Positions 7,765 to 43,144 of a DNA stretch of 64,000 bases are shown here, piece by piece. The notes under the pieces were generated by a model. The model was not told the origin of the DNA. It saw nothing but the letters and a program-made list of their open reading frames with translations, and made no database searches. The translations under genes were made by a program, and so were the position numbers. Numbering within the stretch: the first letter of the stretch is position 1; every line of letters begins with the position of its first letter. The stretch comes from a virus, in the IMG/VR virus record IMGVR_UViG_3300025288_000012, positions 126,919 to 190,918 of that record; one strand, 5' to 3'.

Positions 7765-8693
7765 TACGTGCCCGCAGATTCACTACGTAAGTGGAATCCC
7801 AATGAAAGTTTTAATCAGTCTCAGTGCTAGTAGTCAAGAGTGGTTTGATGGGTTGCCCAAAAGAGCACAGAAGGAATACCTCATCAACAACCCCCGCAGT
7901 AAGTTTGGTACCGTACTTGCGGCAGCTCCCAAAAAGCTTGCGGCAGCTCCCAAAAAGCTTGCTCTGCTACCGGTACCAAAACTTCGAGACCTATGGAGAC
8001 CAAGCGGTGAATTTTCGGATGCTGCTAATGAACGGGCTCGTAAAAGTGCACTCGACGAGATCTCTAAGATTAAGGCGGAGAACGAAAAACGTAAAGCAAC
8101 AAATACTAGTACCAGAGCAGTACGTTCCCAATTTCGTACCGAAAATGCCTTAAATGATAAGACTATAGCCACGTTGTCCAAAAAGCTATATGCCACACTC
8201 GGTCCCTCTGTAAGAGACACTCATGGGAAGGCCCTTTGAACTTAAAAAAGGGTGCGAAGGCAGTACCACTGGCTGAGCGGGCCGCAAAGTCTCCTCTGCT
8301 GACTAAAAATCTTCTTGTTCACACGTCCGAGTTGGCTTACGCTAACAAGTCGATTCCACTGGATGAAAGAAAACAAATCCGTGCACAAATCCGCAACCTT
8401 ACAGAGTACGGCACAAGAGAACAGCAGACTCAATTCTTGAGCAAGTTTTTGGCTGCCCACCAACGTGTAACACCCTCCGCGTCTAAGACACGCCCATCAA
8501 GGCGGAGGGTGTAGCCACTGAGGCACTGGAAGAAAAGGAGGCCAAAGCCCTGAAGCCTGCTAAGTCTGTTGCCGCACGGGATGCCCGGGAGATGTATGTT
8601 AGCCTCGCATGCTTTGCCCACTATAAGTTGCGCCTGAAGTACGAAACTGGCCCTGTGGTGCTTAAAAAGCTCAAGGTCACTATAGAAAATTGA
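7724..8693 (+). pseudogene. Frameshifted candidate internal head protein gene (pieces 7724/7802-8239, 8236-8514, 8487-8693)
   Basis: MKVLISLSAS leader at 7802 and a WF..L....Q..YL..NP.S motif. Three consecutive frames read as one K/A-rich protein if shifts near 8213 and 8488 are removed. Confidence 0.55.
7916..7962 (+). repeat. 21-bp tandem repeat (about 2.2 copies, LAAAPKK)
   Basis: cttgcggcagctcccaaaaag x2 plus cttgc. Confidence 0.95.
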
Positions 8694-8772
8694 GCAAAGA
8701 CATCGGTCGGTAATCCTATGAGGACTCAGAGTACAGAGTCCTTTTGAAGAGTTTAGTAACTAAGGAAACACC

Positions 8773-9050
8773 ATGAAAACCATAGTTAGCAAGTCCCTAA
8801 AAGCTATGTCTGCGGGTAAGAAATCACCCACGTGACGCTACTCGTCTTGAAGACATACGGGGTGAGATGGGTGAACTTCTAAGTGAGGCACGCCCGATAG
8901 CCAAAAAGGTGGGTGGCCACACGTATGCCGCGGCCTCCTCTTATTGGATATAGCACACATCGAATCTGCCTTGGGTGCAATGAGACTTCGAGTCGTCCAT
9001 CTGCTACTACAATGCAGGACACCCTCAACGAACTACTAGAAGGCCTCAAA
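8773..9050 (+). pseudogene. Frameshifted leader-bearing gene (MKTIVSKSL...RLEDIRGEMGELLSEAR...YWIAHIESALG...TMQDTLNEL)
   Basis: Strong AAGGAAACACC-ATG start; the protein-like reading continues across three frame changes (~8830, ~8951, ~8975). Confidence 0.5.
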
Positions 9051-9530
9051 ATGAAAATCTCTGTTTCTCTATCTGCAGGTGTGACACTAGACTTCGAGGA
9101 TCACGACAAGTCGGCAGCACCTATCTTCCACTACGGTGTTCGAGATGGTGTTCGCGTATTCTTCAACAACAACTTCCTGCTCCGTGCAGAAGGTCCGGTG
9201 TCAAAGACTTTCTCTATCCATCATAGAGCAGACTTGATGAAGAACAGGTCATTTGAGCCCTTAGGCACGCTAGACCTAGCGCAAAACCGGGTGTACAAGA
9301 TTGAGTTGTTGCCGATCTGGGCGGGCATGGGAATAGCAGAGGAACTTGTAGTCAGTCTTCTGAAGACGTTTAACGAACCCCTAGCCTTATCACGCCATAG
9401 TTGCCTGCAATCAGTACGCAACAACCTAGGCGTGGATGAGTACTTATGGTTAGACAACCTGTCTGAACTGGAAATCCGGGCAGTTAGCTGTAGGACGAAA
9501 GAACGTGTATCTAATTCGTGGTCCGTGTAG
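9051..9530 (+). CDS. Hypothetical protein with MKISVSLSA leader; possible GNAT-like fold
   Basis: IELLPIWAGMGIAEELVVSLL resembles the GNAT acetyl-CoA-binding motif A. Start placed at ATG 9051 because of the leader. Confidence 0.5.
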   Translation: MKISVSLSAGVTLDFEDHDKSAAPIFHYGVRDGVRVFFNNNFLLRAEGPVSKTFSIHHRADLMKNRSFEPLGTLDLAQNRVYKIELLPIWAGMGIAEELVVSLLKTFNEPLALSRHSCLQSVRNNLGVDEYLWLDNLSELEIRAVSCRTKERVSNSWSV

Positions 9531-9727
9531 CATAACCTGAAATCCTTTCAACAAGTATACAAGTATAAGTCTAGAATTTAGTTACACCGCCCTGGTTGGG
9601 CAAAATGGTGCACCTATTAGTGGTTATATAGGCTTTTTACGCTATTTACCGCTAAATATGTGCACCATAATTTTTTTGCGTGAACACCTTTCACATATTT
9701 TGTACCATCCCAACCAGGAGCCGCCAC

Positions 9728-13775: not shown

Positions 13776-13836
13776 GCTTTTGGTGCCTTCATTGTAATTT
13801 TATCGTTACACAAAACGCCTTAACTAGGAGCCTTTC

Positions 13837-14244
13837 ATGAACAACGTATCCCGTGATCTTTTTCTTCTTTCTGCACTCGCTTTTCAGCAAGGTGATTACT
13901 CCAAGGCGGGTGAGCTGTTCTCCTCAAGCCTAAGTTCCGATGATGCCGCCGACTTCTTGGCGCAAGTTGATTCGATGGGTGAGGAAGACACTATGATGGA
14001 AGCAAACTCCTCCGATAAGAACAAGCTAAGCGACATAGCGAAGGCTATCAGTCGGGCAATTGGCTCTCATGCTAGTACTTCAGCCGATGAAGCCGTTGAC
14101 GACGCGGAAGAATCTGGTGACGAAGAAGACCTGGACGAGGACTCTGATATTGAATCCGACGACGTGGACAGTGATGCTGCAGGTGAGCGCATTATCCCTA
14201 GCGCGCTGAGTTCAGTCAGCAGTGCAATCAAGGTAAAAGCGTAA
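13837..14244 (+). CDS. Acidic hypothetical virion protein
   Basis: AGGAG RBS; D/E-rich tract; HASTSA site like the putative processing motifs. Confidence 0.7.
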   Translation: MNNVSRDLFLLSALAFQQGDYSKAGELFSSSLSSDDAADFLAQVDSMGEEDTMMEANSSDKNKLSDIAKAISRAIGSHASTSADEAVDDAEESGDEEDLDEDSDIESDDVDSDAAGERIIPSALSSVSSAIKVKA

Positions 14245-14245
14245 A

Positions 14246-14911
14246 ATGTCTAAGCCTGCAACTATTCTTGACGAACTTAACGAAAGTAGTTTGTTCTTGG
14301 CTAGCCTGTATGGTGTAAGGACATTGTTCGAGCGAGAGCTAGGCATAAAGAACATGCTTATTGCCACGGACGAAATGATAAAGGCACGTATCGCCCAAAG
14401 GGTTAAGCAGAATCAGTTACCTGAATACCCTTATGCCTATCTAATACTCAACGAAGTACAGTCTGTCAAAGAGATGCAACCCAACAAGGTAGTCCGACGT
14501 TTAGGATACCGCATGGGAACAGAAGGTGCCACTAGAGCTACCTCAACCAAGGGTTACATCTTTCCGGTAAAAGCAGGTGTCGAACTGAAGTACACTGATG
14601 CCGATCCTTATAAGGTGATCAGAGTTGCCGAGGCAATGATGATTCTGGGTCAAGTAGATGGATTGAACTTTGACCTTCGGGTAGGTGACGACGACGCCAT
14701 GAGGTTGTCAATTAGACTGGAAATACCTGAGAGCGTTGCTATACCAATGGCTGATACTAATCTACCAAGCGCCCCAGCTGCCTTAGAAGTATCCTTGTCA
14801 TTTGTTATGTATGGCTACGCAGGGTTCTTCCGTGAGGTGTCAGCCGTTAGCTCGAATTCTCCATTAGTTGCTACTACCTTTATAAACCAAGGTCTAACCG
14901 ATGACAACTAA
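14246..14911 (+). CDS. Putative neck/tail-completion protein
   Basis: Position between head and sheath genes; function inferred from synteny only. Confidence 0.5.
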   Translation: MSKPATILDELNESSLFLASLYGVRTLFERELGIKNMLIATDEMIKARIAQRVKQNQLPEYPYAYLILNEVQSVKEMQPNKVVRRLGYRMGTEGATRATSTKGYIFPVKAGVELKYTDADPYKVIRVAEAMMILGQVDGLNFDLRVGDDDAMRLSIRLEIPESVAIPMADTNLPSAPAALEVSLSFVMYGYAGFFREVSAVSSNSPLVATTFINQGLTDDN

Positions 14912-15257
14912 AGCCCTACCGCTGGATAAGACGCTAGTTACTGAGTTCAAATCTGAGATAGCCGACATTCATCTTCGTCAGCGCCAACTGAAGAACTCGA
15001 TAGCTGCAAAGATACCACAGTCTTCGAACTTCAGGACCGGTGACTTCAGCCTAATAACGTCACAGCAGCTTGAACTCAACACTGTCACAACTGCTATTCA
15101 AATTCATGGTTATGAACCATTCATGGTAGACCTAGTGAACGGGTTGACCTACACATCTTTTGTGTGCAATGGATTGTTCATAGCATTTGCTGCCTTCGAC
15201 AGGGTCGTCGTTAGGAAGCATTTGCTAGATACAAGAATAACTTACCTTTGCGCTTAA
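14901..15257 (+). CDS. Hypothetical protein
   Basis: 118-aa ORF coupled to the upstream gene. Confidence 0.6.
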   Translation: MTTKALPLDKTLVTEFKSEIADIHLRQRQLKNSIAAKIPQSSNFRTGDFSLITSQQLELNTVTTAIQIHGYEPFMVDLVNGLTYTSFVCNGLFIAFAAFDRVVVRKHLLDTRITYLCA

Positions 15258-15287: not shown

Positions 15288-16847
15288 ATGGGAATGCCTT
15301 CACCATCAGCTGGTGTGTACGTCAACGAGATAGACTTATCCCAAGTAGTATCTGGTGCCTCTTCCTCTATTGGTGCCATCGTGGGAGAGTCGAAACGTGG
15401 TCCAGTAGACGTAGCCTACCTGGTTACAAGCACGAAACAGTTCCTCGAGTTGTTCGGCAAGCCAGACGCCCGAGTTAGCTATATGCACTATTGTGCCTTG
15501 GCATTCCTGGAACATGGCTCACGTCTGTACGTGACTCGTGTGGCTCCAGAAGCTATGTACGGTGGTTGCACGATCTTCCTCAATGCCAATCTGAACGCAG
15601 CTGAGCCTTGGGCTGCTGGTGAGTCTGATCCGTTGCTGAAGCCATTTGCTCCTTCAGACCTTATGCACTTCTACGGTGCTGACCCGGGTGGCTGGAACAA
15701 AAACGTTGAGGTGCGTGTTTACCCCAACACCAACGAGAACGATGGTACGTTCTTTGTGGACGTGTACCTAGCTACTCAGGGCCAGCCTGTAGAGCGCTTC
15801 AAAGTTCACCTTAACTTCCTGCTTGATGGGTACGGTGTCCAGCTGAACGTGCAAGAGCACATCAACAAGAGAAGTGCTCACATTCGGGTAGCTCAGAACT
15901 ACGATCAAGCTGATTACTTTGCTAGCCCCAACAGGCAATTCATCAACACCGTAGCATCTGTTAAGCTTACAGGCGGGCTTGATCCCCGTAAGGCTACCAC
16001 TAGTGAAATCATGCAAGCCTGGGACTTGTACCAAGACCCAGAACAATTGGACATAAACATCCTCATAAACGGTGGCTACACCATTCCGGCTATTCAGTTG
16101 AAGATGGCAGAATTGTGTGAGTCCCGTATGGACTGCCTCGCAGTTCTCGATGTTCCTTCAATGGAGCAATCACTTCAGGATGCAGTCAACTATCGGCGTA
16201 ACACACTGATGCTTGACTCCTCATATGCCGCTCTTTATGCACCTGATTACCTAGTCCTCGATCAGTACAACGACATAAAGTTGTACGTTCCTCCCAGTGG
16301 TCATGTGGCAGGTGCCTACGCCCGCACTGACAGCGAGTACGAGCTGTGGTTTGCTCCTGCTGGTATGAACCGTGGTCGTCTGAACATCCTTGGATTGCGC
16401 CACGTGTACAACCAAGGTGATCGTGATGCTCTGTACGACAACCAGGTTAACGGTACTCGTGTAATTGTCGGTGCAGGCATCAAGATTTGGGGTGCTGACA
16501 CACTTCAATCAATGGCAAGTGCTTTGTCCAATGTATCGGTACGTCGCCTAATGATCTTCCTTGAGAAGAGCCTTAGCGAGGCAGCACTGTACTCTGTGTT
16601 TGACCCCAACGACTACATACTGCGTGCCCAGCTTGTGGAGCTCAGCGAACGGTTCCTGCTGCCTATAAAGAACGCACGTGGTCTGTACGCCTTCGGTGTA
16701 GTGTGCGATGAATCGAACAACTTGCCTTCCACCATAGCCGCTGGTGATCTTATCCTGGACGTGTACGTGGATCCTGTTCTTCCAGCCAAGCGTATCCACT
16801 TAACTGCCATCATCAACAAGACTGGCGCTAAGTTTGTTAACCAGTAA
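15288..16847 (+). CDS. Tail sheath protein
   Basis: GVYVNEID, IVGESKRGPV, PPSGHVAGAYARTD..WFAPAG.NRG, NVRRL motifs. Confidence 0.95.
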   Translation: MGMPSPSAGVYVNEIDLSQVVSGASSSIGAIVGESKRGPVDVAYLVTSTKQFLELFGKPDARVSYMHYCALAFLEHGSRLYVTRVAPEAMYGGCTIFLNANLNAAEPWAAGESDPLLKPFAPSDLMHFYGADPGGWNKNVEVRVYPNTNENDGTFFVDVYLATQGQPVERFKVHLNFLLDGYGVQLNVQEHINKRSAHIRVAQNYDQADYFASPNRQFINTVASVKLTGGLDPRKATTSEIMQAWDLYQDPEQLDINILINGGYTIPAIQLKMAELCESRMDCLAVLDVPSMEQSLQDAVNYRRNTLMLDSSYAALYAPDYLVLDQYNDIKLYVPPSGHVAGAYARTDSEYELWFAPAGMNRGRLNILGLRHVYNQGDRDALYDNQVNGTRVIVGAGIKIWGADTLQSMASALSNVSVRRLMIFLEKSLSEAALYSVFDPNDYILRAQLVELSERFLLPIKNARGLYAFGVVCDESNNLPSTIAAGDLILDVYVDPVLPAKRIHLTAIINKTGAKFVNQ

Positions 16848-16856
16848 GGACTAGTC

Positions 16857-17267
16857 ATGGAAATATCAATCAGCAAGACACGCGTGCAGAAGGCCCGAGA
16901 AGTTCTAAGGGCTGAAGAACGTCGCAAAGCCTCAGAGGCAAAGGCTTCTGTTCGTGAAAAAGTAAAGCTTCTCAAGGAAAAGAAGAAGGACTTGCTCAAG
17001 TCCATGTCTGAAATAAACAAAGCTCAGTTCAAGCAGCAGTCTGCCCTTTCGGAGAAGTTGGCGAAAGTAACCCAGACTCGTATGGAGTTTGAGACTGAGG
17101 AGCAGAAGATGCAGGAGCAGCTAGAGAAGCTTGCTACCAAACACGCATCGGACTCAAAGAAGATGAAGCTTAAGGCTCGTCTTGATGATCTGAACTCAAA
17201 GCTGGCAGACCTTGGTGTTACTACCGATGTGCCTAAAGACGATTCAACTACTGAAGATAAGGAGTAA
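16857..17267 (+). CDS. Lys/Glu-rich coiled-coil protein (MEISISK leader-like N-terminus)
   Basis: Heptad K/E pattern; inserted between sheath and tube genes. Confidence 0.65.
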   Translation: MEISISKTRVQKAREVLRAEERRKASEAKASVREKVKLLKEKKKDLLKSMSEINKAQFKQQSALSEKLAKVTQTRMEFETEEQKMQEQLEKLATKHASDSKKMKLKARLDDLNSKLADLGVTTDVPKDDSTTEDKE

Positions 17268-32931: not shown

Positions 32932-33204
32932 ATGGCAACCAAAGTCCCGTTAGTAATGCTGAAGAGCAAAGTCATAACACAGATCGCCGCTAGTGGTCCT
33001 GGCCTTCTTGTAGCGTACAGCGATGGTACAACCAGCTCAGTAGGGTCCGTAGGTGGTTCTTCCGGTAGCTCAGGTGCTGCTTCAGTATTTACGCCCAGAG
33101 CATCAACTGGTGCAAAGGCAGGCGACATTGCGGTTGAAGGTGGAATCATCTACATGCACGATGGTAGTGCGTGGAGACAGATCTACCCGGCCGTGTATTC
33201 GTAA
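32932..33204 (+). CDS. Small Gly/Ser-rich virion protein
   Basis: GDIAVEGGIIYMHDGSAWRQI fibre-like motif; first gene after a TAATTTT motif. Confidence 0.65.
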   Translation: MATKVPLVMLKSKVITQIAASGPGLLVAYSDGTTSSVGSVGGSSGSSGAASVFTPRASTGAKAGDIAVEGGIIYMHDGSAWRQIYPAVYS

Positions 33205-33216
33205 GGAGTATTAATC

Positions 33217-33624
33217 ATGGGAGCCGCTCAAATTGCCCGAACTACTAGTGGCATGCAAATGGAACAGACTGTACCTATCTACAAATCTCGCGTCACTGCA
33301 CTACTTACTAGCATGCAGCCTTTGAAGCCCATACAAGCTTATGACATGAATCAACTTGTTGCGCTGCTCGCACTCTTTGCGTCGCACACTCACACTGTGG
33401 CTGACTTGAGGGGTAAGGACACGTATGGGAGTCTTCCGATCTACACTGCTGCTGGTACTTCAGTTAACGCCGTATCTACGGGTGTACCAGGTGCCCAAAA
33501 AACTCAATTCTTAAGTGTTCTAGCTGGTCAGTCAGTTAATGCTGCTCAGTATAACCGTATCCGAGATGCGCTTGAGGAGTTTAGGGATGGTCACTCTCAC
33601 TACATACTCGACACTACATCTTGA
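33217..33624 (+). CDS. Hypothetical protein with two HxH motifs (HTH, HSH)
   Basis: AGGAG RBS; two internally similar halves; resembles the 68-aa peptide downstream. Confidence 0.7.
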   Translation: MGAAQIARTTSGMQMEQTVPIYKSRVTALLTSMQPLKPIQAYDMNQLVALLALFASHTHTVADLRGKDTYGSLPIYTAAGTSVNAVSTGVPGAQKTQFLSVLAGQSVNAAQYNRIRDALEEFRDGHSHYILDTTS

Positions 33625-33638
33625 TCTAGGAGCACCTA

Positions 33639-33845
33639 ATGGCAACAGAAAACCTATCCACCGTAGTATCAGTAAAGCCTGCAGTTCCAGCAAAATCTGC
33701 CCAACAAGCTGTAGACGATGACACCTACCGTCAAATGCTGCTGGTTCTTGATGAACTTACTGATCACACTCATGTGTTCTACGATGATTACACTACTGCG
33801 TGTGATTGCAACTGTGATTGCAACTGCACAAGGGGCATCCTATGA
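33639..33845 (+). CDS. Cys-rich peptide (..HTH..CDCNCDCNCTRGIL); candidate radical-SAM substrate
   Basis: 68 aa; AGGAG RBS; five Cys in a CxCxCxCxC run; exact 12-bp tandem repeat at 33801-33824. Confidence 0.75.
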   Translation: MATENLSTVVSVKPAVPAKSAQQAVDDDTYRQMLLVLDELTDHTHVFYDDYTTACDCNCDCNCTRGIL

Positions 33846-34762
33846 AAAGTTTAGTCTTGGTTAAGAGTGGTGAGTACACTCCTAACTTGTTCAATGAGTT
33901 CAGCCAGATCGTGAACGGCGTAGCTGGTTCCGAAGATTTCCAAGAGCAACTACGTTTCGTAAAGCGCTCTGACTACACCTTCCGGCTGTTTCGATCTAAT
34001 GCTCCTGCGGCACCTCTGGCGTTGGTAGCATTTACCCACGACACGTCGAAACAGCCTACAGCTTCTACATTCTTCGCCATCGACCTGAAGTTGATGCAGG
34101 ATGTGCTAGCTAATCATGAGTTCGTGCTCTTGGGTAGCGTAATAAAGGACGCAGTAATATCTGATGCAGACCTATTGCCTTCCCTACGTTACATAACACG
34201 CGACGAAGATGACAACTTGCTTGATGCGGTGTCGGGTAAACGTCTGATCGAAGGAAGTACGGGTACAGGACCGAAGTCAGAGACCGTATTGTCAATGGTC
34301 AGCATGATTAAAGCCGGTACACTTCCCATCTACTATCTGATTCTGGACAACGGTAGCGTGGGTGTATCTGACTTCGAGGACTACTTTGATGAAGACGCGA
34401 AGTCCACAGTCATACCTGTAAATGATTTCGATGGTGCACTAGCTGAGCACCTCATGCGCATCAACTTTGGACCTGAGGTAACAGTAATTGCGAAGAACAA
34501 CTTGTTCGTCAAGGGCCCTTCAACTACGTTGGAGTTTTTGACCGAGCCGTGGCTTCAGTACCTTGATGACACTTCGAGGCAATTGCTGCCTGGTCTGAAG
34601 ATCAGTGGCTCTTGTGACTACGTAGTAGACGGTCCAAGGGTTCACCTTAAGGTCAACAAGCCTGTGTCTACATTGCGGGTAGAGTTCAATCTTGGTAGGT
34701 TCTTCTCTCTTGTACAGTCGCAAGAAAGACCGGTAGTCGAATTCATCGTCTACGCTGAATAG
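33842..34762 (+). CDS. Hypothetical accessory protein A (paralog of 34775-35611)
   Basis: ATGA overlap with the peptide gene; PNLF, LRF, YI.R..D..DA.SG and VEF(I/V) blocks shared with the next ORF. Confidence 0.75.
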   Translation: MKSLVLVKSGEYTPNLFNEFSQIVNGVAGSEDFQEQLRFVKRSDYTFRLFRSNAPAAPLALVAFTHDTSKQPTASTFFAIDLKLMQDVLANHEFVLLGSVIKDAVISDADLLPSLRYITRDEDDNLLDAVSGKRLIEGSTGTGPKSETVLSMVSMIKAGTLPIYYLILDNGSVGVSDFEDYFDEDAKSTVIPVNDFDGALAEHLMRINFGPEVTVIAKNNLFVKGPSTTLEFLTEPWLQYLDDTSRQLLPGLKISGSCDYVVDGPRVHLKVNKPVSTLRVEFNLGRFFSLVQSQERPVVEFIVYAE

Positions 34763-34774
34763 CCTGAGGCTGCC

Positions 34775-35611
34775 ATGAAATTCTTCTTCAAAGATAGCAA
34801 ACATCGGCCCAACCTGTTCTCCTCGGCAGCCTATTTCATGGTCGGCAAAGACGCCGATCTGTTCGGTCATTTTGACTACGGACTAAGACTTGTTCAATCG
34901 AATGAGGACTTCTTCATCGCGCAGTCAGGCTGGGAACCAACTAGTCTAGGTACAGATGAAACGTCACACAAAGTAGACTTCAGTGCTATCAAGAATGCAC
35001 TTGAGACTAATGAGTTCATCATCGTAGGTGCATCAAAGCCCGAAGGTGTTGTGTTCTCGAACAACTTGGCTAAGCACATCAAGTACATAGCTAGAAGTAG
35101 GCAGGATCCAGATCGACGTGTTGATGCCTTGACTGGAAACTTTGTGGACATTCAGCACCCCATAAGTGCACTAATGTTCGTCGTTAAGGTTCCGCATCTT
35201 GACGCTGCTATTTGTTACATGGATCCAATGTTCCTTAAAGTTGGATCCTTGATAGAGACAACTGCCGAGTTTGAAGAAGTCTATAAGTATCCGGGTGACG
35301 TTCGTGACTTCTTGTTGAATCCGAAGTTCTCTAATGCCTCACTCGTGGCCGGTGCGCTTCTTACAACCAACACCTTCGAGCTCACAATACTCGAAGGCTT
35401 CAGTGAAGAAGAAGTGGATTTAGTATTAGACTCAAGCAGGGTAATAACCAGCTTGACGTACCAGCGTATACCGTATGGGTTCCGTATAGCTGGCAACAAG
35501 GCTAATGGCTTCTTCAAGCTAGTACCAGACTTCGGTCTGTTAAGCAAGCTACACGGCGAGAATTGTGTACTTGAATTTGTAATTAAGAACATGAGTGGAG
35601 CCTTCATGTAA
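34775..35611 (+). CDS. Hypothetical accessory protein B
   Basis: Paralogous blocks as above. Confidence 0.75.
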   Translation: MKFFFKDSKHRPNLFSSAAYFMVGKDADLFGHFDYGLRLVQSNEDFFIAQSGWEPTSLGTDETSHKVDFSAIKNALETNEFIIVGASKPEGVVFSNNLAKHIKYIARSRQDPDRRVDALTGNFVDIQHPISALMFVVKVPHLDAAICYMDPMFLKVGSLIETTAEFEEVYKYPGDVRDFLLNPKFSNASLVAGALLTTNTFELTILEGFSEEEVDLVLDSSRVITSLTYQRIPYGFRIAGNKANGFFKLVPDFGLLSKLHGENCVLEFVIKNMSGAFM

Positions 35612-35642
35612 GGTTCTGTTGCAACTAAGGATACAAACTATC

Positions 35643-37280
35643 ATGACCGATCTTGTTTCTGCTCACAAATCATCCGACGAGAATGACTCCACAACTGTAG
35701 TGTTCACGAACAGGATGGACTTAAAGTCTGGTACGAGAGACGTAAAGTTTGAGCGCGTCGTACCGAAGCCGGGCGAGCGCGTGGCTAAGATCTCTGAACA
35801 GCGGTCACGGTATTTGGACTTGCAGAACCTTAACGTCATATTGACTAACGCTTGCAACCTGTCCTGTTCGTACTGCTATGAGCAGCACAGGAAAGACTTC
35901 GGTAGGTTTGACGGGCAAGCCTTGAAGAAACTCTACGACTTCTTCGTTGGGTGCAACGACATTAAGTCAAAGGTCTTCACGTTCTTTGGTGGTGAACCTC
36001 TTGCCCAGAAAGACCTTATACTCGAATTCCTGTCAACTTATGACGAAGAACTTACCCGCAATTATCCTGACGTGAGCACCAACGTCATAACCAATGGGCT
36101 ACTTCTCACACCTGAGTTTCTTGATGCCTACTTCAAGCATTCATTCGTCAAGCTCGTTATAAGTCTTGACACTGACAAGGCAGATCTGGATCATAGAGAA
36201 CTAACTCAAGAACAAATTGACCAGATACTCCACAACATAAGCCTGATCCCGCAAGAATTCCTGGACTCGAAGTCAGTGTGCATACGGTGCACCATTTCGC
36301 AAGAAACTGCGCCTCACCTGAAGGAGTTTGTGACGCGTCTTCATGGTCTAGGTGTTCGGTCCTTCGTTATTCATCCTTTGACCATGTCCTTAAAGTCTGG
36401 ATTCATCGAGTGGGATGAAACGGAATGGATTGCCCTTCTATCCGACATGACTGATCTACTTGAACTCGAGAATATGCTTATTCAGTTTAGTGAAGGTGTT
36501 GGCATAAAGAAGCACTCTAACTGTATGGTCGGTTCTGACATGATAGCAGTAGATGCATCTGGAGATTACAGCGGCTGCTACTTCTTCACGAATCAAAAAG
36601 CTGCAATGGGCGACTTTACCTTGGGTAACATTTTCCGGGACGAAGTCTTCGTTGATCGTTACACAGACTTCGCAGCGCAGTACACCCAGCACTTTGAGTC
36701 TGAAGAATGTGAATCCTGTGACCTCAATAACCTATGCTACCAATGCCCTGCTGGTAATATAGCTACACATGGAAAGATGTTCCGCCCGGATGGTATGTGC
36801 AAGAAGGTAGTGTCGCTATTCAATCTTCTGCATGAAACCATAATCAAGAAGGGCTTCTTCCAAAAGAATCGTCGTCTCATGGAGGCTGTTAGGGCAGAAG
36901 GCAGGCAAGTCATAACCAAAGCACTTATCCACCTTATGTACACCAAACAGACAGGTAGGAAGCTTAGTCCTGAGGGTTACGCTGAATTAGAGCAGTCAGC
37001 TGATCCCGAGAGTTTGGCCAGATGTATTATCCAGCATCCATTAACCTCCATTAGAATACTAGCTGTTCTTGCGGTTGACAGCCCAGGTAAGGCAACCATG
37101 AAGCAGTTGTACGAATTTTTAGCTACTAAGTCCTACAAGCCAGTTATTGTGTCTCAGAACCTTAGACAAAGTTCTATCGAGGTAGAAGTGTTTTACCTTA
37201 CGTTGCTTCATTTCCTTATCCTCAACACTAAGGGAAACAAGATGGAATCAGCCGCAGCTCGGATGAACTATGAAGACTGA
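35643..37280 (+). CDS. Radical SAM/SPASM enzyme 1
   Basis: CNLSCSYC; FFGGEPL; ITNG; SPASM-like C..G..C / CESC..C..CP..C; extra C-terminal helical domain. Confidence 0.92.
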   Translation: MTDLVSAHKSSDENDSTTVVFTNRMDLKSGTRDVKFERVVPKPGERVAKISEQRSRYLDLQNLNVILTNACNLSCSYCYEQHRKDFGRFDGQALKKLYDFFVGCNDIKSKVFTFFGGEPLAQKDLILEFLSTYDEELTRNYPDVSTNVITNGLLLTPEFLDAYFKHSFVKLVISLDTDKADLDHRELTQEQIDQILHNISLIPQEFLDSKSVCIRCTISQETAPHLKEFVTRLHGLGVRSFVIHPLTMSLKSGFIEWDETEWIALLSDMTDLLELENMLIQFSEGVGIKKHSNCMVGSDMIAVDASGDYSGCYFFTNQKAAMGDFTLGNIFRDEVFVDRYTDFAAQYTQHFESEECESCDLNNLCYQCPAGNIATHGKMFRPDGMCKKVVSLFNLLHETIIKKGFFQKNRRLMEAVRAEGRQVITKALIHLMYTKQTGRKLSPEGYAELEQSADPESLARCIIQHPLTSIRILAVLAVDSPGKATMKQLYEFLATKSYKPVIVSQNLRQSSIEVEVFYLTLLHFLILNTKGNKMESAAARMNYED

Positions 37281-38340
37281 CCTTGCGTTCTGCACGGACC
37301 TGAGTATTTATCTAGGCCACGCATGTAATTTCGACTGCAGCTATTGTGATAGAAGTTACATTCGTAACACCATTGGTGGGCAAGGACTAAACCACACGTT
37401 GGTAGACGCCGTAGTTGAGCTAGTGCTAGGAATGGCAGAGGCCGGAACCCTACCCACCATGATTTCCTTTCATGGTGGTGAGCCTCTGTATTACGTCAGG
37501 CTTATGCACTCCATCCTGAGTAGAGTCCAGCATGTGTTGACACGCACACGGGTGTTCATTCAAACCAATGGTTCCCTGATCGTGGAGAACGCAGAGTTCT
37601 TCCATGAGTTTTCCCATCTTGAAATGATAGTCAGCATAAGCTACGACTTCGCGTTCCAGGGAATCAATAGGACAGAGTTTAACCTTCGTAGTGCTCTGCG
37701 AGTTCTGAAGAGCCATGGTATTCGGGCACAACTGCAGTACGTAATACCGTTGGATAACCCGAAGTGCATGTCCTTTGAAGTTGTTAGGGAGATACTGTCC
37801 TACACAGCGGAACAGGATCTTGTGAGCCGCATAAACCTTATACCTTTGCGACACATACGCGGTAACGAGAAGTTCCGACTCATCTTGGACCAAGTCGATA
37901 TGAGCAGCGTGTTCTTTGCACTGCTGAAGTTTGTCGAACTCCTATACGTCATGGGTGTCAAAGTAATAATTGATGGTCACAGTGTGGGCGTAGAGAAAGA
38001 ATACTTCCACGAACATCCGCAGGTAATATTGTCTCCTGATGGGAAGGTCTATCCAGAATATGACTTCCTAGAGTATAGGATGCACAATACCTGCATCGGT
38101 ACCTGGTCTAGCACGGGCATCGTGTTGCAGAGTGTGGACGAGGACTCTTTAGTTAATGAGGAGTGCGTGCTGTGTGCCCAGACTCGCGTATGTGGGCTGA
38201 AATACCTGTTCAAGGAGTTCAATCGTGCACCAGTTCCGGCTAAGTGCACTGAGTTCTACCGAAGACTAACCATGGTTACCAAGCACATACAAAAGCTAAA
38301 CACTAATAAATCGTTGGTACATTGGATGGCAGAAAAATGA
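37270..38340 (+). CDS. Radical SAM enzyme 2
   Basis: CNFDCSYC; FHGGEPL; QTNG; ISYD; partial C-terminal Cys cluster (CVLC..C..C). Confidence 0.9.
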   Translation: MKTDLAFCTDLSIYLGHACNFDCSYCDRSYIRNTIGGQGLNHTLVDAVVELVLGMAEAGTLPTMISFHGGEPLYYVRLMHSILSRVQHVLTRTRVFIQTNGSLIVENAEFFHEFSHLEMIVSISYDFAFQGINRTEFNLRSALRVLKSHGIRAQLQYVIPLDNPKCMSFEVVREILSYTAEQDLVSRINLIPLRHIRGNEKFRLILDQVDMSSVFFALLKFVELLYVMGVKVIIDGHSVGVEKEYFHEHPQVILSPDGKVYPEYDFLEYRMHNTCIGTWSSTGIVLQSVDEDSLVNEECVLCAQTRVCGLKYLFKEFNRAPVPAKCTEFYRRLTMVTKHIQKLNTNKSLVHWMAEK

Positions 38341-39512
38341 AAAACATACGCTTGACCTCACTACCTGATTTTGAAAACGTAGTAAACCTCAAACAATACT
38401 TTGTGATGTTTGATGGTCTGCGTAACATAGAGTACGATCTTGCTTTCTCAGTCTTCTCCAAGTATCACTGTACGTCAGGGTGCAAGATATGCTACATACA
38501 GGACATATGGCAATCAGACTACTACGATAAGTCGAAGGATCCACTCACAAAAGACGTTCTTGAGTTCTTCAGTTACTTCGAGCTCATATGCACGACCGAT
38601 GACCTATACTTTATATGGCAGGAGCATCCTCGCCTATTCGAGTGGTACCAAGCTAATGGCTCAGTCTTCTCCTCTAGTGCCATGACTGACAATGCCTTTG
38701 TTCGGCAGTGGCAGATACTACTAAACCAGGTGAATTTCAAAAACATCAGCGAGATTTCCTTCTCCGAAGAGTTCCTCGCTACCAACAACTGGCGTACTGC
38801 AAAATGGGTTGTACCTAGGGTTGCAGAGCTGGCCCGCAAATACCGCATACTTAAGATAAAGGTCATCGTCAGCAAGGCCTCACCTAGCAAGGAAAGTATC
38901 GCGTTCCTGAGGGAAATGCGAGAGCTAGGCGTATCAACCACTGATGTGTACGACGACATTAGGCTGAGTCGGAACATTCGCCACGGTGAGACTGACTCTG
39001 CAGGTATTGACTACGATGGAAATAGGGTGGACTACTACGGTTCAACGTATCCTTTGTTCACTGAGTCTTGCTACCTCCAGCAATCAAAGGTCTATTCGTT
39101 ACTGTCCGATTCTACCTCAGGATCTAATCACTTCTACGAACTTGGTAATGGTTTTGACCCCAGCAAGTTCATTGTGGCAGTACTTCAATCCAAAAAGCAG
39201 TCGTACGCTCGGTATGCTGCGGCTTTGAAAGGTAAAGTGTCTAACAAGCACACTGACTACTTCAACTATTTGGCAGGAAATTTGACCGTCAATCCAGACT
39301 TCAATTTCATACCGTCTGTAATGCTGAGCGCACACTCAACTTTCTACAGTCGTCTATGCGAGCATGGATTCATTGACACTAAGTTTGGACTAGTTTCATC
39401 CAAGGCGTTAGCCAACAAGGAAACCCTAGTGCCTCCCATATCATTACCAGCTTCAAAGCAGAAGCTTGAGTACTTTCAGGTCAAGTGTCAAAAAGGACGT
39501 CCCCAATGTTAG
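38337..39512 (+). CDS. Divergent radical SAM-like protein 3
   Basis: CTSGCKIC (CxxxCxxC) present; GGE motif and SPASM Cys not evident; ATGA overlap with the upstream gene. Confidence 0.7.
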   Translation: MKNIRLTSLPDFENVVNLKQYFVMFDGLRNIEYDLAFSVFSKYHCTSGCKICYIQDIWQSDYYDKSKDPLTKDVLEFFSYFELICTTDDLYFIWQEHPRLFEWYQANGSVFSSSAMTDNAFVRQWQILLNQVNFKNISEISFSEEFLATNNWRTAKWVVPRVAELARKYRILKIKVIVSKASPSKESIAFLREMRELGVSTTDVYDDIRLSRNIRHGETDSAGIDYDGNRVDYYGSTYPLFTESCYLQQSKVYSLLSDSTSGSNHFYELGNGFDPSKFIVAVLQSKKQSYARYAAALKGKVSNKHTDYFNYLAGNLTVNPDFNFIPSVMLSAHSTFYSRLCEHGFIDTKFGLVSSKALANKETLVPPISLPASKQKLEYFQVKCQKGRPQC

Positions 39513-40777
39513 TGCCGTTTAAGACTGCGTCTGGTGTAAGCTTCTTCCTAGATAACCAGGCAATGACGTTGTACAAAGGTGACAAGACTAGCAAGCTATT
39601 TGAGCCCGCAACACCAGTTGACCCATCACTGATCGGAAGATTCAATCACCTTACGAAGTCCAATCTGCCGGAAACCCTTAGGATAAGTCTTGGGCAGGCT
39701 TGCAACTACAGCTGCAACTATTGCAGCCAGAAAGACCTTGGTGACCCATCAGAGCGCCCTCCTCGTTTGGCCTCAATGACCTTCCTGGACAGCGTTAACA
39801 AGAATCTCGACCTTAGCCACATAAAGAAAATTGAGCTCTGGGGTGGAGAGACCTTGCTGTACTGGAATGACATAGTCAACATAATGGACAACCTAGACAG
39901 GGAAGACCTTTCGTGGTACATACCCACAAATGGCACACCACTTCAGATGAAGCACGTAGAGTACCTGTCCAACCTTAAGGGAAGAGTAGGAATTGGTATC
40001 TCGCATGACGGACCCGGACACGAGAAGCTTAGAGGCAAGGAATTCCTTCACAAGAAGATCGACGTGCTTAAGGCTATTCAGGAAACTAGAGGCAAGGTTC
40101 AGTTCAGCTTCAATCCGGTAATAAGCGCTACAAACTATAATCTCATGGAGTTCAACAACTTCTTCAAAGCCTTCCTGTACGCTGCTGGTCTTGACAAAGT
40201 ATCAATGAACTTCGAGCTGTGCAGAGCATATGGTGATCAGGGCAGCTCCGAGAATGTTATCAAAGGTGATGACTTACCTTTGTACCGTGATGCACTTCGT
40301 TTGTTCCTAGACGCCCATTTGGAGCAGTTCAGAACCGCGGGGTACACAAGAGATGGTGAAATGCTTATGACTAATCTGTTCCACACAGGCATAGGTGTTA
40401 TACCTCTGTCCAGGTCTTTCCGCAATGAAACTGTTCCTCTAACAAGCACTAACTGTGGGGTCGATGACTCCAAACTGCTAAGCTTGGAACTGAATGGTTC
40501 TGTCAAAGTCTGCCAGAACACTGACTCCCGTTATTCAAAAGGCAACATAGCGGCCTTACAAGACGTGGTAATGACGGGCGTTAAGTATCGAGTGAACTCA
40601 GTGTGTAAGGACTGCACTGTAGTTAGACTATGCAAAGGCAGCTGCCCTATTGATACTGGGGACGAAAATTTCCAGATTAACCACAACGTCGAGCTTGTGC
40701 ATTACACTGAAGTTCTGTTGGCCTCACTACGCTTGTTGTTCAGGCAAGACGTAGAACTTCAAGGAAGTATACCATGA
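39506..40777 (+). CDS. Radical SAM/SPASM enzyme 4
   Basis: CNYSCNYC; LWGGET; PTNG; ISHDG; CG..C / CKDC..CKGSCP. Confidence 0.92.
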
Positions 40778-41571
40778 CACTATACGAATTTGCCAAGTAC
40801 GTTGAGTCGTTAGCTGGAATCCGGAATCTCGACGAACTCAATCCAGTTGAAATTCGTCTGTCAAACCCTATAACTGCTGCGTCTGTAATTGTCATAGCCA
40901 GCGTACGAGAGCCTAAGTCTGTACTCATTCCTCTAAATGGAATATGGGTGTGTTGTGACCCCAGAGGAGTGAACTACCTCAAGGTGTACAGGCTCGTATC
41001 CTTTGTCCCAAGTGCATCGTTCGAGTACACGTGGGAAGAGCAAGACAACCCAAATGACATCTACGACTACACGCAGTCGTACGCACTTCCTTCTGGTGAA
41101 GTCGGTCCTCCTGGTCCAGCTGGTCCTCCTGGTTCAGCTGGTCCTCAAGGTGCTAAAGGCGACAAGGGAGACAAGGGTGACACTGGAAACGTTGGTCCTC
41201 AAGGCCAGCTAGGACCTGTTGGTCCTCGTGGTTTTGTTGGACCGCCTGGACCTGTTGGTCCCGCGGGTGAAAGTAGCACGGGTATAGAGCTTGCATCTCA
41301 GCAAGTTGGTGCCTATGTTGCGAACCACGTATACCAGAACAACTCCGGCACAACGTTGGTATTCATGATTACTGACCAAGGAGCCTACGGTATAGGTACC
41401 ACGTTCTATATAGGGCCAGCCTCACCTCCAGATATGGTGGCGGGTTCCTATGGGCGTGGAAGTGCCACGTCTTCGCATAGCGGCTGGTCTATGACCGTTT
41501 TTGTGCCGAATGGTTGGTATTTTCAGCTGCAAGGTCAATGTACTTCTTGGTTGGAGGCCTCTTTTTCCTAA
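40774..41571 (+). CDS. Collagen-like (Gly-X-Y) fibre protein
   Basis: About 19 GXY triplets; N-terminal domain shared with 61474-63177; C-terminal domain shared with 31674-32339. Confidence 0.85.
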
Positions 41572-41613: not shown

Positions 41614-41976
41614 ATGCCCGTAACTCAGAAGCTTAAGCAAGAGGCTAAAGGATTTGTCCAGAGCTATAAAGGACCTTTCCACTCACTTAACGATACCATG
41701 CGAATCCTGATGATGGTAGTTGTAGCAGGGTTGCTGTTTTACCCTGACTTCACCATGCTCAGAATTGTGCAGTACGTTCTAGGCATTCAGGTAGCACTGA
41801 GCCTGATTTCCCACGTGACCCGCAAAATGCTCTTCCCCAAGGTTGACATTGATGTGTTCTTCGAGAAGTCTAAGGAAGAGCCTATGAGTGCAGCCATAGC
41901 GATTCTGGCGGTTTCAATGGTGCTAGCGACCCTGATCTTTGTGTCTGGTCACTTGTTCGGTGGTGTGGGTCAATGA
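41614..41976 (+). CDS. Putative holin
   Basis: Three hydrophobic segments; directly upstream of the endolysin; AAGGAG RBS. Confidence 0.7.
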   Translation: MPVTQKLKQEAKGFVQSYKGPFHSLNDTMRILMMVVVAGLLFYPDFTMLRIVQYVLGIQVALSLISHVTRKMLFPKVDIDVFFEKSKEEPMSAAIAILAVSMVLATLIFVSGHLFGGVGQ

Positions 41977-42209
41977 AACTCTGGTGTATACTTACTCTGG
42001 TAGCGTTAACGGCACCAGTTGAGGCTACCGAGACTATACCACCTAGAGCAAAGCCGCTGTTGCCTACAGTTGTAGCGTCTATAAACAAGTACTGGCCTGA
42101 CTTGCCTTTGCGTTCGTTCATACCAGCCTTGAATGAGTTAGAGACCTGTATTTCTCTAACTCATTCAAGGTGCGGGTCCAGCAAGGCGGAGCTCAAGACT
42201 AAGAAGTGA
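41973..42209 (+). pseudogene. Truncated endolysin copy (signal peptide plus first ~55 aa)
   Basis: KYWPDLPLRSFIPAL..LETCISL.HSRC..KAELKT then a stop; homologous to the start of the mature domain of 42374-43144. Confidence 0.8.
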
Positions 42210-42213
42210 GCCG

Positions 42214-42513
42214 GTGAGATCAAGGATCTCAGCTTCTGCAGCAAAGATGTATAGGAAAAATCTGTCAGTTCTCGAAGCCATGAAGAAAGGTAGGGCAAAG
42301 GCCCAAAAGGAACGCGATTATTATTCCCAGATAAGTCGTACACTGGGAGGAAAGGAAGTAGAGGTTAACCGAAATGGTAAAGTACGAATTTTTAGGTCTC
42401 AGAGGCAAGCCGCGTTTTATCTCAAGTGTCATCCTCTTGTTGTCAATAATGTTCTTCACCACAAACGCGGCGTATTCTCAGAGTCTATCAAGCTCCGATT
42501 CCTTAATACTTAG
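42214..42513 (+). mobile_element. Homing-endonuclease remnant (NUMOD1/IENR1-like DNA-binding domain, no nuclease domain)
   Basis: KEVEV..NGKVRIFRSQRQAAFYLK....VNNVL....G pattern; basic N-terminus; in-frame stop at 42157 rules out an upstream nuclease domain. Confidence 0.6.
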
Positions 42514-43144
42514 CAAGTATCTTCCCTACAAGGACATGATAAATGAAAATATGACTAGGTACTGGCCTGACTTGCCTTTGCGTTCGTTCCTTCCAGCACT
42601 TGTAGAAAAAGAAACTTGTATATCGGCAAAGCACAAATTCTGTTGGAGTCCAACCGCAGAACTAAAGACTAGTCGAGAATACGGCTTCGGGTGGGGCCAA
42701 TTCACTGTAGCGTACGACGCTGCCGGATCCGTACGCTTCAATGCGTGGGAAGACGCGAAGAACTCCCATAAGGATCTAGCTAATTGGGAATGGGCTGATC
42801 GTCTAAATCCAATCTTGACTATCAAGGCAATAACAATAAAGAACAGTGTAGCGTGGCGCAAGGCCACGTTCCCAACTGCTACACCTATTGATAGACTGGC
42901 CTTCGTTGTGTCTGCCTACAATGGTGGTTCTACCTATAAGGATCGCATTCTCTGCTCTCGGACGAAGAACTGCGATTCCGCCAGGTGGTTCAAACAACCT
43001 GGCAAGCTAGCAGTTGCAGATGTTAGCACAAAGTCCAGAGTACCCGTTAAAGGCTATGGCCAATCCTTCTACGACATAAATCGAGGTTACGTGGTTCATG
43101 TTCTGACTAAACGTAACCTCAAGTACATTCCTTATACAGGGTGA
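42374..43144 (+). CDS. Endolysin, lytic transglycosylase/SLT-like, with signal peptide
   Basis: VEKETC (catalytic Glu); YGFGWGQFT; SAYNGG; INRGYV. AGAGGT SD before ATG 42374; hydrophobic ISSVILLLSIMFFTTNAAYS. Confidence 0.85.
   Translation: MVKYEFLGLRGKPRFISSVILLLSIMFFTTNAAYSQSLSSSDSLILSKYLPYKDMINENMTRYWPDLPLRSFLPALVEKETCISAKHKFCWSPTAELKTSREYGFGWGQFTVAYDAAGSVRFNAWEDAKNSHKDLANWEWADRLNPILTIKAITIKNSVAWRKATFPTATPIDRLAFVVSAYNGGSTYKDRILCSRTKNCDSARWFKQPGKLAVADVSTKSRVPVKGYGQSFYDINRGYVVHVLTKRNLKYIPYTG

Follow-up and report, generated by a model that had tools for sequence, protein, structure and literature searches.

The final 64 kb of a 190.9-kb viral sequence from IMG/VR (record IMGVR_UViG_3300025288_000012), referred to here in its whole length as the window, contains ten closely packed open reading frames (ORFs) on the plus strand at 32932-41571, which we designate g1 to g10 (Table 1). 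The third of these encodes a 68-residue peptide, g3, with a Cys repeat near its C-terminus, and further along the same run are the genes of radical S-adenosylmethionine (radical-SAM) enzymes, some with SPASM domains. We suggest, with somewhat less than even confidence, that this is a phage-borne maturation cassette, similar to those for ribosomally synthesized, post-translationally modified peptides (RiPPs) and tied to the tail fibre, in which the SPASM enzymes staple g3, and that g3 is a fibre-associated subunit. RiPP-like maturation of g3, taken by itself, is well supported by the comparisons of genes and families given below. The source record is estimated to be 78% complete, which, for a sequence of this length, indicates a jumbo phage.

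The initial annotation had described g3 as a 68-residue Cys-repeat peptide, and its C-terminus, CDCNCDCNCTRGIL, was confirmed; in longer form it reads ...DHTHVFYDDYTTACDCNCDCNCTRGIL. In the family alignment, H43, T44, H45, D49, Y51, C57, C59, C61, C63, R65, and G66 are invariant, and the first ~25 residues are freely variable. Judged from its sequence, the 68-residue ORF is a genuine gene under selection. A word-based search gave eight close homologues, and a profile search of 1.84 billion representative proteins gave a family of 73 clusters at 50% identity, 41 of them with E ≤ 1e-10. Most members of the family are 55-120 residues long. The 79 distinct members have three to six Cys in a C-X-C run, whose X positions are occupied by N in 55% of cases, by Q in 19%, by D and A in 8.5% each, and by E in 3%, so that N, Q, D, and E together account for 86%. 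The distance from the HxHxxx[D/E] motif to the first Cys is exactly five residues in 78 of the 79, and the usual C-terminus is [T/G/S]RG followed by two residues. The CDCN-CDCN segment of g3 is encoded by an exact tandem duplication (Table 1), and this duplication, together with the range of three to six Cys across the family, fits the in-frame growth and shrinkage of a repeat. No match to g3 was found in NCBIfam, Pfam, or PHROGs, including the models for SCIFF and the other catalogued Cys-rich precursors.

The module of a helix followed by HxHxxxD occurs once in g3 and twice in g2, the product of the preceding gene, and natural variants of the peptide family combine the two proteins (P numbers are our handles for family members). 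In P0030, g2 and g3 form a single chain of 230 residues, and P0013, P0022, P0040, P0056, and P0068 have two modules and a Cys tail. The Cys run of P0036 is internal and is followed by a poly-Pro linker and a domain of 180 residues, for which the ESM Atlas gave no usable match.

The order of the genes in the cassette recurs in about 17 distinct phage loci, an arrangement far beyond chance. These loci are RP12, L005, L007, L009-L011, L013, L014, L016, L018, L019, the P0008 contigs (which resemble L011), L020, and L022-L025. Their contexts were taken from IMG/VR, ENA, Logan, and GTDB, mostly as fetched DNA, with the P0008 contigs read as gene tables only. The usual order is a fibre gene with the g1 motif, g2, g3, g4, g6, g7, g8, and g9, and the number of radical-SAM genes after the peptide and its partner, g4, is usually one to five. 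Variants have one enzyme (L020, L021), two (L023), or five (L011, in which the fifth radical-SAM/SPASM gene is at 8420-9694), a second copy of g8 (L007, copies at 13836-14951 and 15911-17017), or the enzymes upstream (L022). Wherever a locus has sufficient flanking sequence, the cluster that holds the peptide also holds one or more radical-SAM/SPASM genes. Precursor and enzyme genes are thus clustered and co-conserved in about 17 loci, as in a RiPP gene cluster.

Since the loci were ascertained through the peptide, the statement that the peptide implies the enzyme is well tested; the converse was tested in the phage collection only, where the only close homologues of g6 among 50,697 phage records were those in RP12 and RP31, both of which have the peptide. 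The initial annotation had envisaged CxC-repeat ORFs beside clusters of several radical-SAM genes in other jumbo phages, and CxC-repeat ORFs in a cluster with one or more radical-SAM genes are present in about 17 phage loci, including the jumbo phages RP12 and RP31; homologous radical-SAM clusters lacking a Cys-rich partner, which it had held to count against its proposal, were not seen. A megablast search with the region against the same 50,697 records gave no match, and a search for related loci with the single g8 protein gave nothing; the loci were recovered with the peptide alignment.

The Ralstonia jumbo phages RP12 and RP31 are close phage relatives, with g6 44% identical. ORF074-079 of these phages are this cassette again, its gene order unchanged, and the four enzymes are 35-48% identical. 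In RP12, two YomR-like fibres are followed by ORF074 (the HxH protein), a 65-residue ORF ending SHTHVFYDNYGSNCNCNCACTRGSL, ORF075, and ORF076-079. This Cys-repeat peptide ORF lies in the gap between ORF074 and ORF075 (RP12, L001:10889-11086, NC_041911.1 ~82888-83085; RP31, AP017925.1 79645-79782) and is unannotated in the public records. In the paper on the two phages, the enzymes appear only among the accessory genes, labelled radical SAM, Fe-S oxidoreductase, and MoaA-like (PMC5468394). RP12 differs from the window in having a single copy of g4, four Cys in the repeat, and an MgoB-like gene instead of the collagen fibre. Because these culturable phages carry the cassette, the family is experimentally reachable.

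Four CxxxCxxC enzymes had been claimed for the cassette, two with SPASM-like Cys clusters, one partial, and one degenerate. The SPASM assignments of g6 and g9 and the partial set of g7 stand, but the cluster motif of g8 is invariant, and g8 is divergent rather than degenerate. g6, g7, and g9 belong to the Pfam family Radical_SAM (PF04055), as their scores are above the gathering cut-off of 29.5 bits and the motif Cys are invariant in 11-16 homologues; all three match phrog_1802. Among 16 homologues of g6, there are 11 invariant Cys, consisting of the radical-SAM triad and eight others (C232, C310, C328, C372, C375, C381, C384, and C402) that include a CX2CX5CX2C motif. The eight additional Cys fit a full SPASM domain, and the Pfam SPASM score is slightly under the cut-off of 21.5 bits. 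g9 has nine invariant Cys, six beyond the triad, and scores 27.3 bits with the NCBIfam SPASM model TIGR04085, for which the cut-off is 27. By these Cys patterns, g6 and g9 have the SPASM domain, a C-terminal seven-Cys motif predicted to hold two auxiliary [4Fe-4S] clusters, and g7 has the triad and four invariant C-terminal Cys (C299, C302, C308, and C326), which is a partial set.

The top NCBIfam models for g6 are PapB (119.3 bits, E 2e-34), the nif11-peptide maturase (82 bits), and QhpD (79 bits), with many other peptide maturases next. Although no family scores higher than PapB, g6 falls outside it, as the equivalog cut-off of NF047865 is 340 bits. The best PDB match of g6 is CteB (5wgg, E 4e-13); g9 matches 8vpo and SkfB there, and the PDB profile matches of g7 are 8vpo, CteB, and YydG. 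With g6, the MoaA, NrdG, and viperin models scored lower than the peptide maturases in NCBIfam. A grouping of the enzymes with cofactor-biosynthesis or anaerobic ribonucleotide reductase activase families, which the initial annotation had considered, was not found. Roles as an anaerobic ribonucleotide reductase activase, as MoaA, or as a viperin-like enzyme are rejected, because the peptide-maturase families score much higher.

By hhalign, the g8 family aligns with the g7 family across 155 columns (80% probability, E 1.4e-5), and the cluster motifs of the two coincide. g8 has no GGE-type motif and has DDL where g7 has GGEP. Pfam gave no radical-SAM match with 12 members of the g8 family, and a PDB sequence profile search with g8 gave nothing. 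We call g8 radical-SAM-like, and it may be a radical-SAM enzyme.

We infer that g3 is the likely substrate of g6, g9, and g7, and perhaps of g8. At its [4Fe-4S]/SAM site, an enzyme of this set would take a hydrogen atom from a carbon, to which a Cys sulfur would then be joined. The likeliest target is the β or γ carbon of an adjacent Asn, Asp, Gln, or Glu, giving ranthionine-type links; the α carbon is less likely. The outcome would be a compact tail with several staples. Thioethers from Cys to amide or acid side chains are suggested by the bias toward N, Q, D, and E between the Cys and by the relatives of the enzymes, since the best of these for g6 include proteins that form thioethers on Asp, Glu, or other non-α carbons (PapB, QhpD, and CteB). 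For g9, the thioether-forming maturase SkfB is a PDB match. The product is probably neither cleaved nor exported, and it may be a small subunit that works with g2, g4, and the upstream fibre. The analogy is with QhpD, which staples the small γ subunit of quinohemoprotein amine dehydrogenase.

The ranthipeptide and SCIFF systems (PapB with freyrasin, CteB with thermocellin) likewise have a full-SPASM radical-SAM enzyme beside a small Cys-rich precursor. Freyrasin has Cys-Asp links. In a similar way, acidic or amide residues flank the Cys in g3 (on the ranthipeptide class, see PMC10114670). However, the scores of the cassette enzymes are far under the cut-offs for these systems, none of the NCBIfam peptide models, that for SCIFF included, is matched by g3, the repeat is C-X-C and not CxxxD, and a peptide may have as many as four or five enzymes. 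Furthermore, the cassette has no detected RiPP recognition element (RRE), lies in a phage fibre module, and has in addition the helix-HxHxxxD module and an apparently obligatory partner of about 300 residues without a recognized fold.

In QhpC, a protein subunit, QhpD forms Cβ-S and Cγ-S bonds, and the ranthipeptide enzymes include NxxcB and PapB (PMC10114670). QhpD, the third-best family match of g6, is thus a SPASM enzyme that makes non-α Cys-Asp/Glu thioethers in an uncleaved small subunit protein (PMC10114670). The SPASM enzyme CrpC makes ranthionine links on the Cys-rich protein CrpA, which is the same chemistry on a Cys-rich protein (PMC13692751). Together, these systems set precedents for non-α thioethers and for proteins, in place of peptides, as substrates. 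The cassette differs from both in that it is below the QhpD cut-off of 453, has no dehydrogenase partner, is viral, and has several paralogous enzymes and a repeat-type core. Radical-SAM enzymes are also found with a His-repeat peptide in the His-Xaa-Ser system (HxsA-D), and HxsB and HxsC are among the matches of g6 and g7. Their scores, 69.7 against 370 bits for HxsB and 25.9 against 267.9 bits for HxsC, place the cassette outside these families, and the cassette has HxHxxxD after a helix rather than His-Xaa-Ser repeats, and a Cys run as well.

A fibre-like gene lies directly 5' of the unit in every examined locus except L022, and it ends in the g1 motif wherever the sequence was read; a surrounding of replication genes makes no difference to this. 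In the window, this gene is g1, which had been called a small fibre-like protein; a weak PHROG tail-fibre match and a C-terminal motif common to other upstream fibres bear this out. The same motif ends fibres of 187-464 residues just 5' of the cassette in RP12, L014, L018, and L025, and BLAST identified g1-like fibres of 385-444 residues in L011, L016, and L023. Elsewhere, the proteins just 5' of the cassette have tail-fibre-type matches, Phage_T7_tail or YadA_stalk, mostly under the Pfam cut-offs. A role for g3 as a fibre subunit is suggested by this fibre gene in nearly every locus, by the module that g3 has in common with g2, and by the natural fusions.

The second gene had been reported to encode an HxH protein, and g2 does carry two HxHxxxD modules. 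In the family alignment, A6, T10, H57, H59, D63, H126, and H128 of g2 are invariant. No relatives of g2 were found in Pfam, in PHROG, or in a PDB sequence profile search. Its AlphaFold2 (AF2) model is a three-helix arrangement of moderate quality, with a predicted local distance difference test (pLDDT) score of 66.5, and a fold search with this model gave generic helical bundles only (Z ≤ 5.4). In other phages, g2 is fused to a Gly_rich_2 domain, to a Hint domain, or to the peptide itself. In L018 (7122-8282) and P0077, a Pfam Gly_rich_2 domain of ~230 residues (E 6e-13) is inserted between the two HxH modules of the g2 homologue. In L016 (8617-9975), a 452-residue protein begins with the g2 homologue and has a Hint (intein/hedgehog-type) module in its C-terminal half, a fusion that hints at self-cleavage in some lineages.

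The partner protein, g4, adjoins the peptide in nearly every locus and is close to universal. The AF2 model of g4 (pLDDT 85.5, predicted template modelling score 0.86) has an α/β N-terminal domain and, in the 108 residues 199-306, an immunoglobulin-like (Ig-like) domain with a VIA Z of 6.5. Fold searches of the PDB by Foldseek, of VIA in its wide form, and of the Atlas gave generic Ig-like matches for residues 199-306 only and no match for the N-terminal domain; the ESM Atlas had no usable match for g4. The sole clear structural twin is ORF075 of RP12, with a template modelling score of 0.76, and BFVD gave the RP12 orthologue only. Since no residue is invariant in 15 homologues, g4 is unlikely to be an enzyme. 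A prediction of the g4-g3 complex, run without controls, scored 0.00 and carries no weight for or against binding.

g4 and g5 had been proposed as a mutually paralogous pair, possibly for substrate recognition. They are indeed weak paralogues (23% identity over 131 residues, E 2e-7), and g5, which is present only in the window, L005, and L009, is a lineage-specific duplicate. A role of the pair as an RRE is not supported, as the model of g4 contains no winged helix. What stands of the interpretation in the initial annotation is a conserved peptide family clustered with thioether-maturase-like enzymes in about 17 loci.

Several points weigh against a stapled subunit of the fibre. The Cys tail is absent from any family protein longer than about 260 residues among the members from the profile search. 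Liquid chromatography-tandem mass spectrometry (LC-MS/MS) of virions of RP31, the one carrier phage with a virion proteome, identified 32 proteins, none of them from ORF68-76, although this is weak evidence, given the low coverage and the lack of an annotation for the peptide ORF in RP12 and RP31. The wider neighbourhood of the cassette consists of replication genes in L022, and of recombination and replication genes in L023. No RRE or other known leader-binding domain was found in the Pfam and NCBIfam scans of the cassette or in the model of g4. The scores of the enzymes are all far under the equivalog cut-offs of their families (for PapB, 119 against 340 bits), so the type of reaction is proposed by analogy. 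The absence of an exporter, protease, or immunity gene, noted in the initial annotation, agrees with our Pfam, NCBIfam, and PHROG scans of the window cassette, in which no such family was found, nor any PqqD-like, peptidase, or transporter family. Since a lytic phage can do without an exporter and an immunity gene, their absence is neutral between a part of the virion and a released peptide.

The same enzymology could instead give a free RiPP, released at lysis or acting within the cell as an antimicrobial, a signal, a metal chelator, or an anti-defence agent, in which case the proximity to the fibre would reflect late co-expression only. We consider this unlikely, though it deserves serious attention. 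It would account for the precursor-like build of g3, with its variable N-terminus, conserved helix, and conserved C-terminal core, and for the small size of most family members; the cassettes of L022 and L023 among replication or recombination genes and the RP31 virion proteome without any protein of the cluster are also in its favour, and lysis would make an exporter and an immunity gene unnecessary. However, the window cassette has no detectable protease, and the most conserved part of the peptide includes the helix-HxH module, which recurs in g2, a protein without the Cys, and is fused to g2 in P0030. Nor does the Cys run of P0036 form a free C-terminus, since a linker and then a domain that looks folded come after it. 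Furthermore, the unit has a fibre-like gene right before it in all loci examined but L022.

In its fullest form, the proposal of a stapled fibre-associated subunit makes g3 a small His/Cys-repeat subunit of the fibre tip, in which several thioether staples are formed by a dedicated radical-SAM/SPASM set. This would be the first RiPP-type cross-linking of a structural protein of the virion, and the C-X repeat, expandable in frame, would form with g4 a new leader-independent recognition system. We regard this fuller version as possible but doubtful.

HxH motifs bind iron in the trimeric fibre tips of T4-type phages. The HxHxxxD modules and the Cys run could accordingly be mainly a metal-binding element (Fe, Zn, or Cu) of an oligomeric fibre tip, with the enzymes acting on another substrate in the module, whether a protein (g2, the fibre, or the one with the collagen repeat) or not, or performing other Cys chemistry, such as the formation of formylglycine. 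HxHxxxD is invariant in three copies over g2 and g3, the rigid spacing of five residues to the Cys run suggests one joint site, and the hydrophobic residues of the helix (Y30, M33, L37, and L40), spaced by 3-4, fit a coiled coil. The C-x-C-x-R-G tail is also loosely like the C-x-P/A-x-R target of anaerobic sulfatase maturases, which are among the weaker matches, at 49 and 38 bits. Nevertheless, we think this quite improbable: the thioether maturases far outscore the sulfatase maturases and any radical-SAM family that does not act on peptides, metal binding does not require the strong bias toward N, Q, D, and E between the Cys, and the Cys-run module with at least one SPASM enzyme is the sole constant of all loci seen, even of the single-enzyme L020 and L021. 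It is very improbable that g3 is consumed to yield a small cofactor or metabolite (cf. pyrroloquinoline quinone and mycofactocin), made from the peptide in successive radical-SAM steps and used during infection. In favour of this are the several radical-SAM/SPASM enzymes that accompany a single small peptide, itself invariant in its C-terminal region, and the MgoB-like protein that follows the cassette in RP12 and RP31 and that a gene of L018 resembles in its N-terminal sequence. Against it, there is no conserved RRE of the PqqD/MftB type, peptidase, or downstream tailoring enzyme, a variation of three to six Cys would be odd for a defined cofactor, the module is common to, and fused with, larger proteins, and PqqE and MftC are outside the best 25 NCBIfam matches of g6, g7, and g9.

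In the literature that we searched, no description of the cassette, the peptide, or the CNCNCNC motif was found. The thioether chemistry of radical-SAM/SPASM enzymes is known from bacterial peptides and a few proteins, and is not known to have been described as a conserved part of a phage tail-fibre module. The biosynthetic logic is known; what is new is the family of the precursor with its HxHxxxD anchor, the partner, the presence of several enzymes, and the fibre-linked viral context. If g3 is part of the fibre, it is possibly the first enzyme-stapled part of a phage fibre, and this would be a new covalent, post-translational reinforcement or functionalization of virions, which might affect how receptors are bound or how harsh environments are withstood. 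A free peptide, in turn, would represent a new phage-encoded class of RiPP. In both cases, the family offers a new type of precursor, in which (C-N/Q/D/E)n comes with an HxHxxxD anchor at a fixed place; each peptide has one to five paralogous enzymes, and the partner protein is new as well.

Table 1. Features of the window. Coordinates are those of the 64,000-nucleotide window, counted from its first letter.
Feature	Coordinates	Strand	Description
Long tail-fibre protein, 1117 aa	28284..31637	+	Weak Pfam Phage_tail_fib match; 3' of gp5-like spike, gp25, and baseplate J genes
DUF4376 protein, 173 aa	32374..32895	+	Pfam PF14301, E 1.6e-7; kept in L005 and L009
g1, mini-fibre, 90 aa	32932..33204	+	C-terminus ...GSAWRQIYPAVYS; weak PHROG tail-fibre match
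g2, 135 aa	33217..33624	+	Two helix-HxHxxxD modules (H57/H59/D63 and H126/H128/D132), from family alignment
g3, 68-aa peptide	33639..33845	+	Variable N-terminus, amphipathic helix, HTHVFYD module, 5-residue spacer, C-D-C-N-C-D-C-N-C, TRGIL
Exact 12-bp tandem duplication in g3	33801..33824	+	tgtgattgcaac x2; encodes CDCN-CDCN, read directly
g4, partner of no known family, 306 aa	33842..34762	+	α/β N-domain and Ig-like C-domain (AF2)
g5, g4 paralogue, 278 aa	34775..35611	+	BLASTP E 2e-7
g6, radical-SAM/SPASM enzyme, 561 aa	35595..37280	+	Pfam Radical_SAM 52.9 bits, SPASM 20.2 bits
g7, radical-SAM enzyme, 356 aa	37270..38340	+	Partial C-terminal Cys set; Pfam Radical_SAM 40.6 bits
g8, divergent radical-SAM-like protein, 391 aa	38337..39512	+	Invariant C45-x3-C49-x2-C52; phrog_36229, E 4.8e-54
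g9, radical-SAM/SPASM enzyme, 430 aa	39485..40777	+	Pfam Radical_SAM 35.0 bits
g10, collagen-like fibre, 265 aa	40774..41571	+	Pfam Collagen, E 1.4e-9

All ten ORFs that had been reported for the operon are present, and the 4-nt ATGA overlaps at 33842, 38337, and 40774 agree with the ends of the ORFs. A TAATTTT motif before the operon had also been pointed out; a motif containing TAATTTT has 4 matches, with 3.5 expected, and, as it is not enriched, it gives no evidence of a promoter; scans for promoters and terminators added no information. The ORFs 5' of the 1117-residue fibre match Pfam Phage_base_V/Gp5_C, GPW_gp25, and Baseplate_J, and the fibre itself is 52-56% identical to the fibres 5' of the cassette in L005, L007, and L009. 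With the spike, gp25, baseplate J, this fibre, and the DUF4376 protein upstream, the cassette lies at the distal end of the module that encodes baseplate and fibres. The collagen fibre described at the end of the operon is g10, in which Pfam finds the collagen repeat. Homologues of g10 follow g9 in L007 and L009 only, and g10 is a lineage-specific neighbour outside the conserved core.

Other genes occupy the position after the enzymes elsewhere. In RP12 (L001:17162-17998) and RP31, the last radical-SAM gene is followed by the MgoB-like protein in place of the collagen fibre of the window, and at the same position in L018 (15828-16634) there is a 268-residue ORF with an N-terminus similar to that of the MgoB-like protein. 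The MgoB-like gene may encode a lineage-specific tailoring enzyme. In L005 (19141-19668), a GidB-like methyltransferase gene follows g9.

A full cassette is also present in a bacterial assembly, Ewingella americana E4 scaffold8.1 (L025, NZ_RCZD01000008.1), which at 253 kb is of jumbo-phage size and could represent a culturable host-phage pair. In this locus, an insertion of three small reverse-strand genes separates the homologue of g6 from that of g7, a TnpB-like transposase ORF is nearby, and the g6 homologue has an extra N-terminal extension of ~190 residues that is rich in Cys, Gly, and His. Directly 3' of the cassette in the window, at 41614-43144, are the genes of a 120-residue protein with long hydrophobic stretches and a 256-residue protein without a Pfam match, and both are kept after the cassette in L009.

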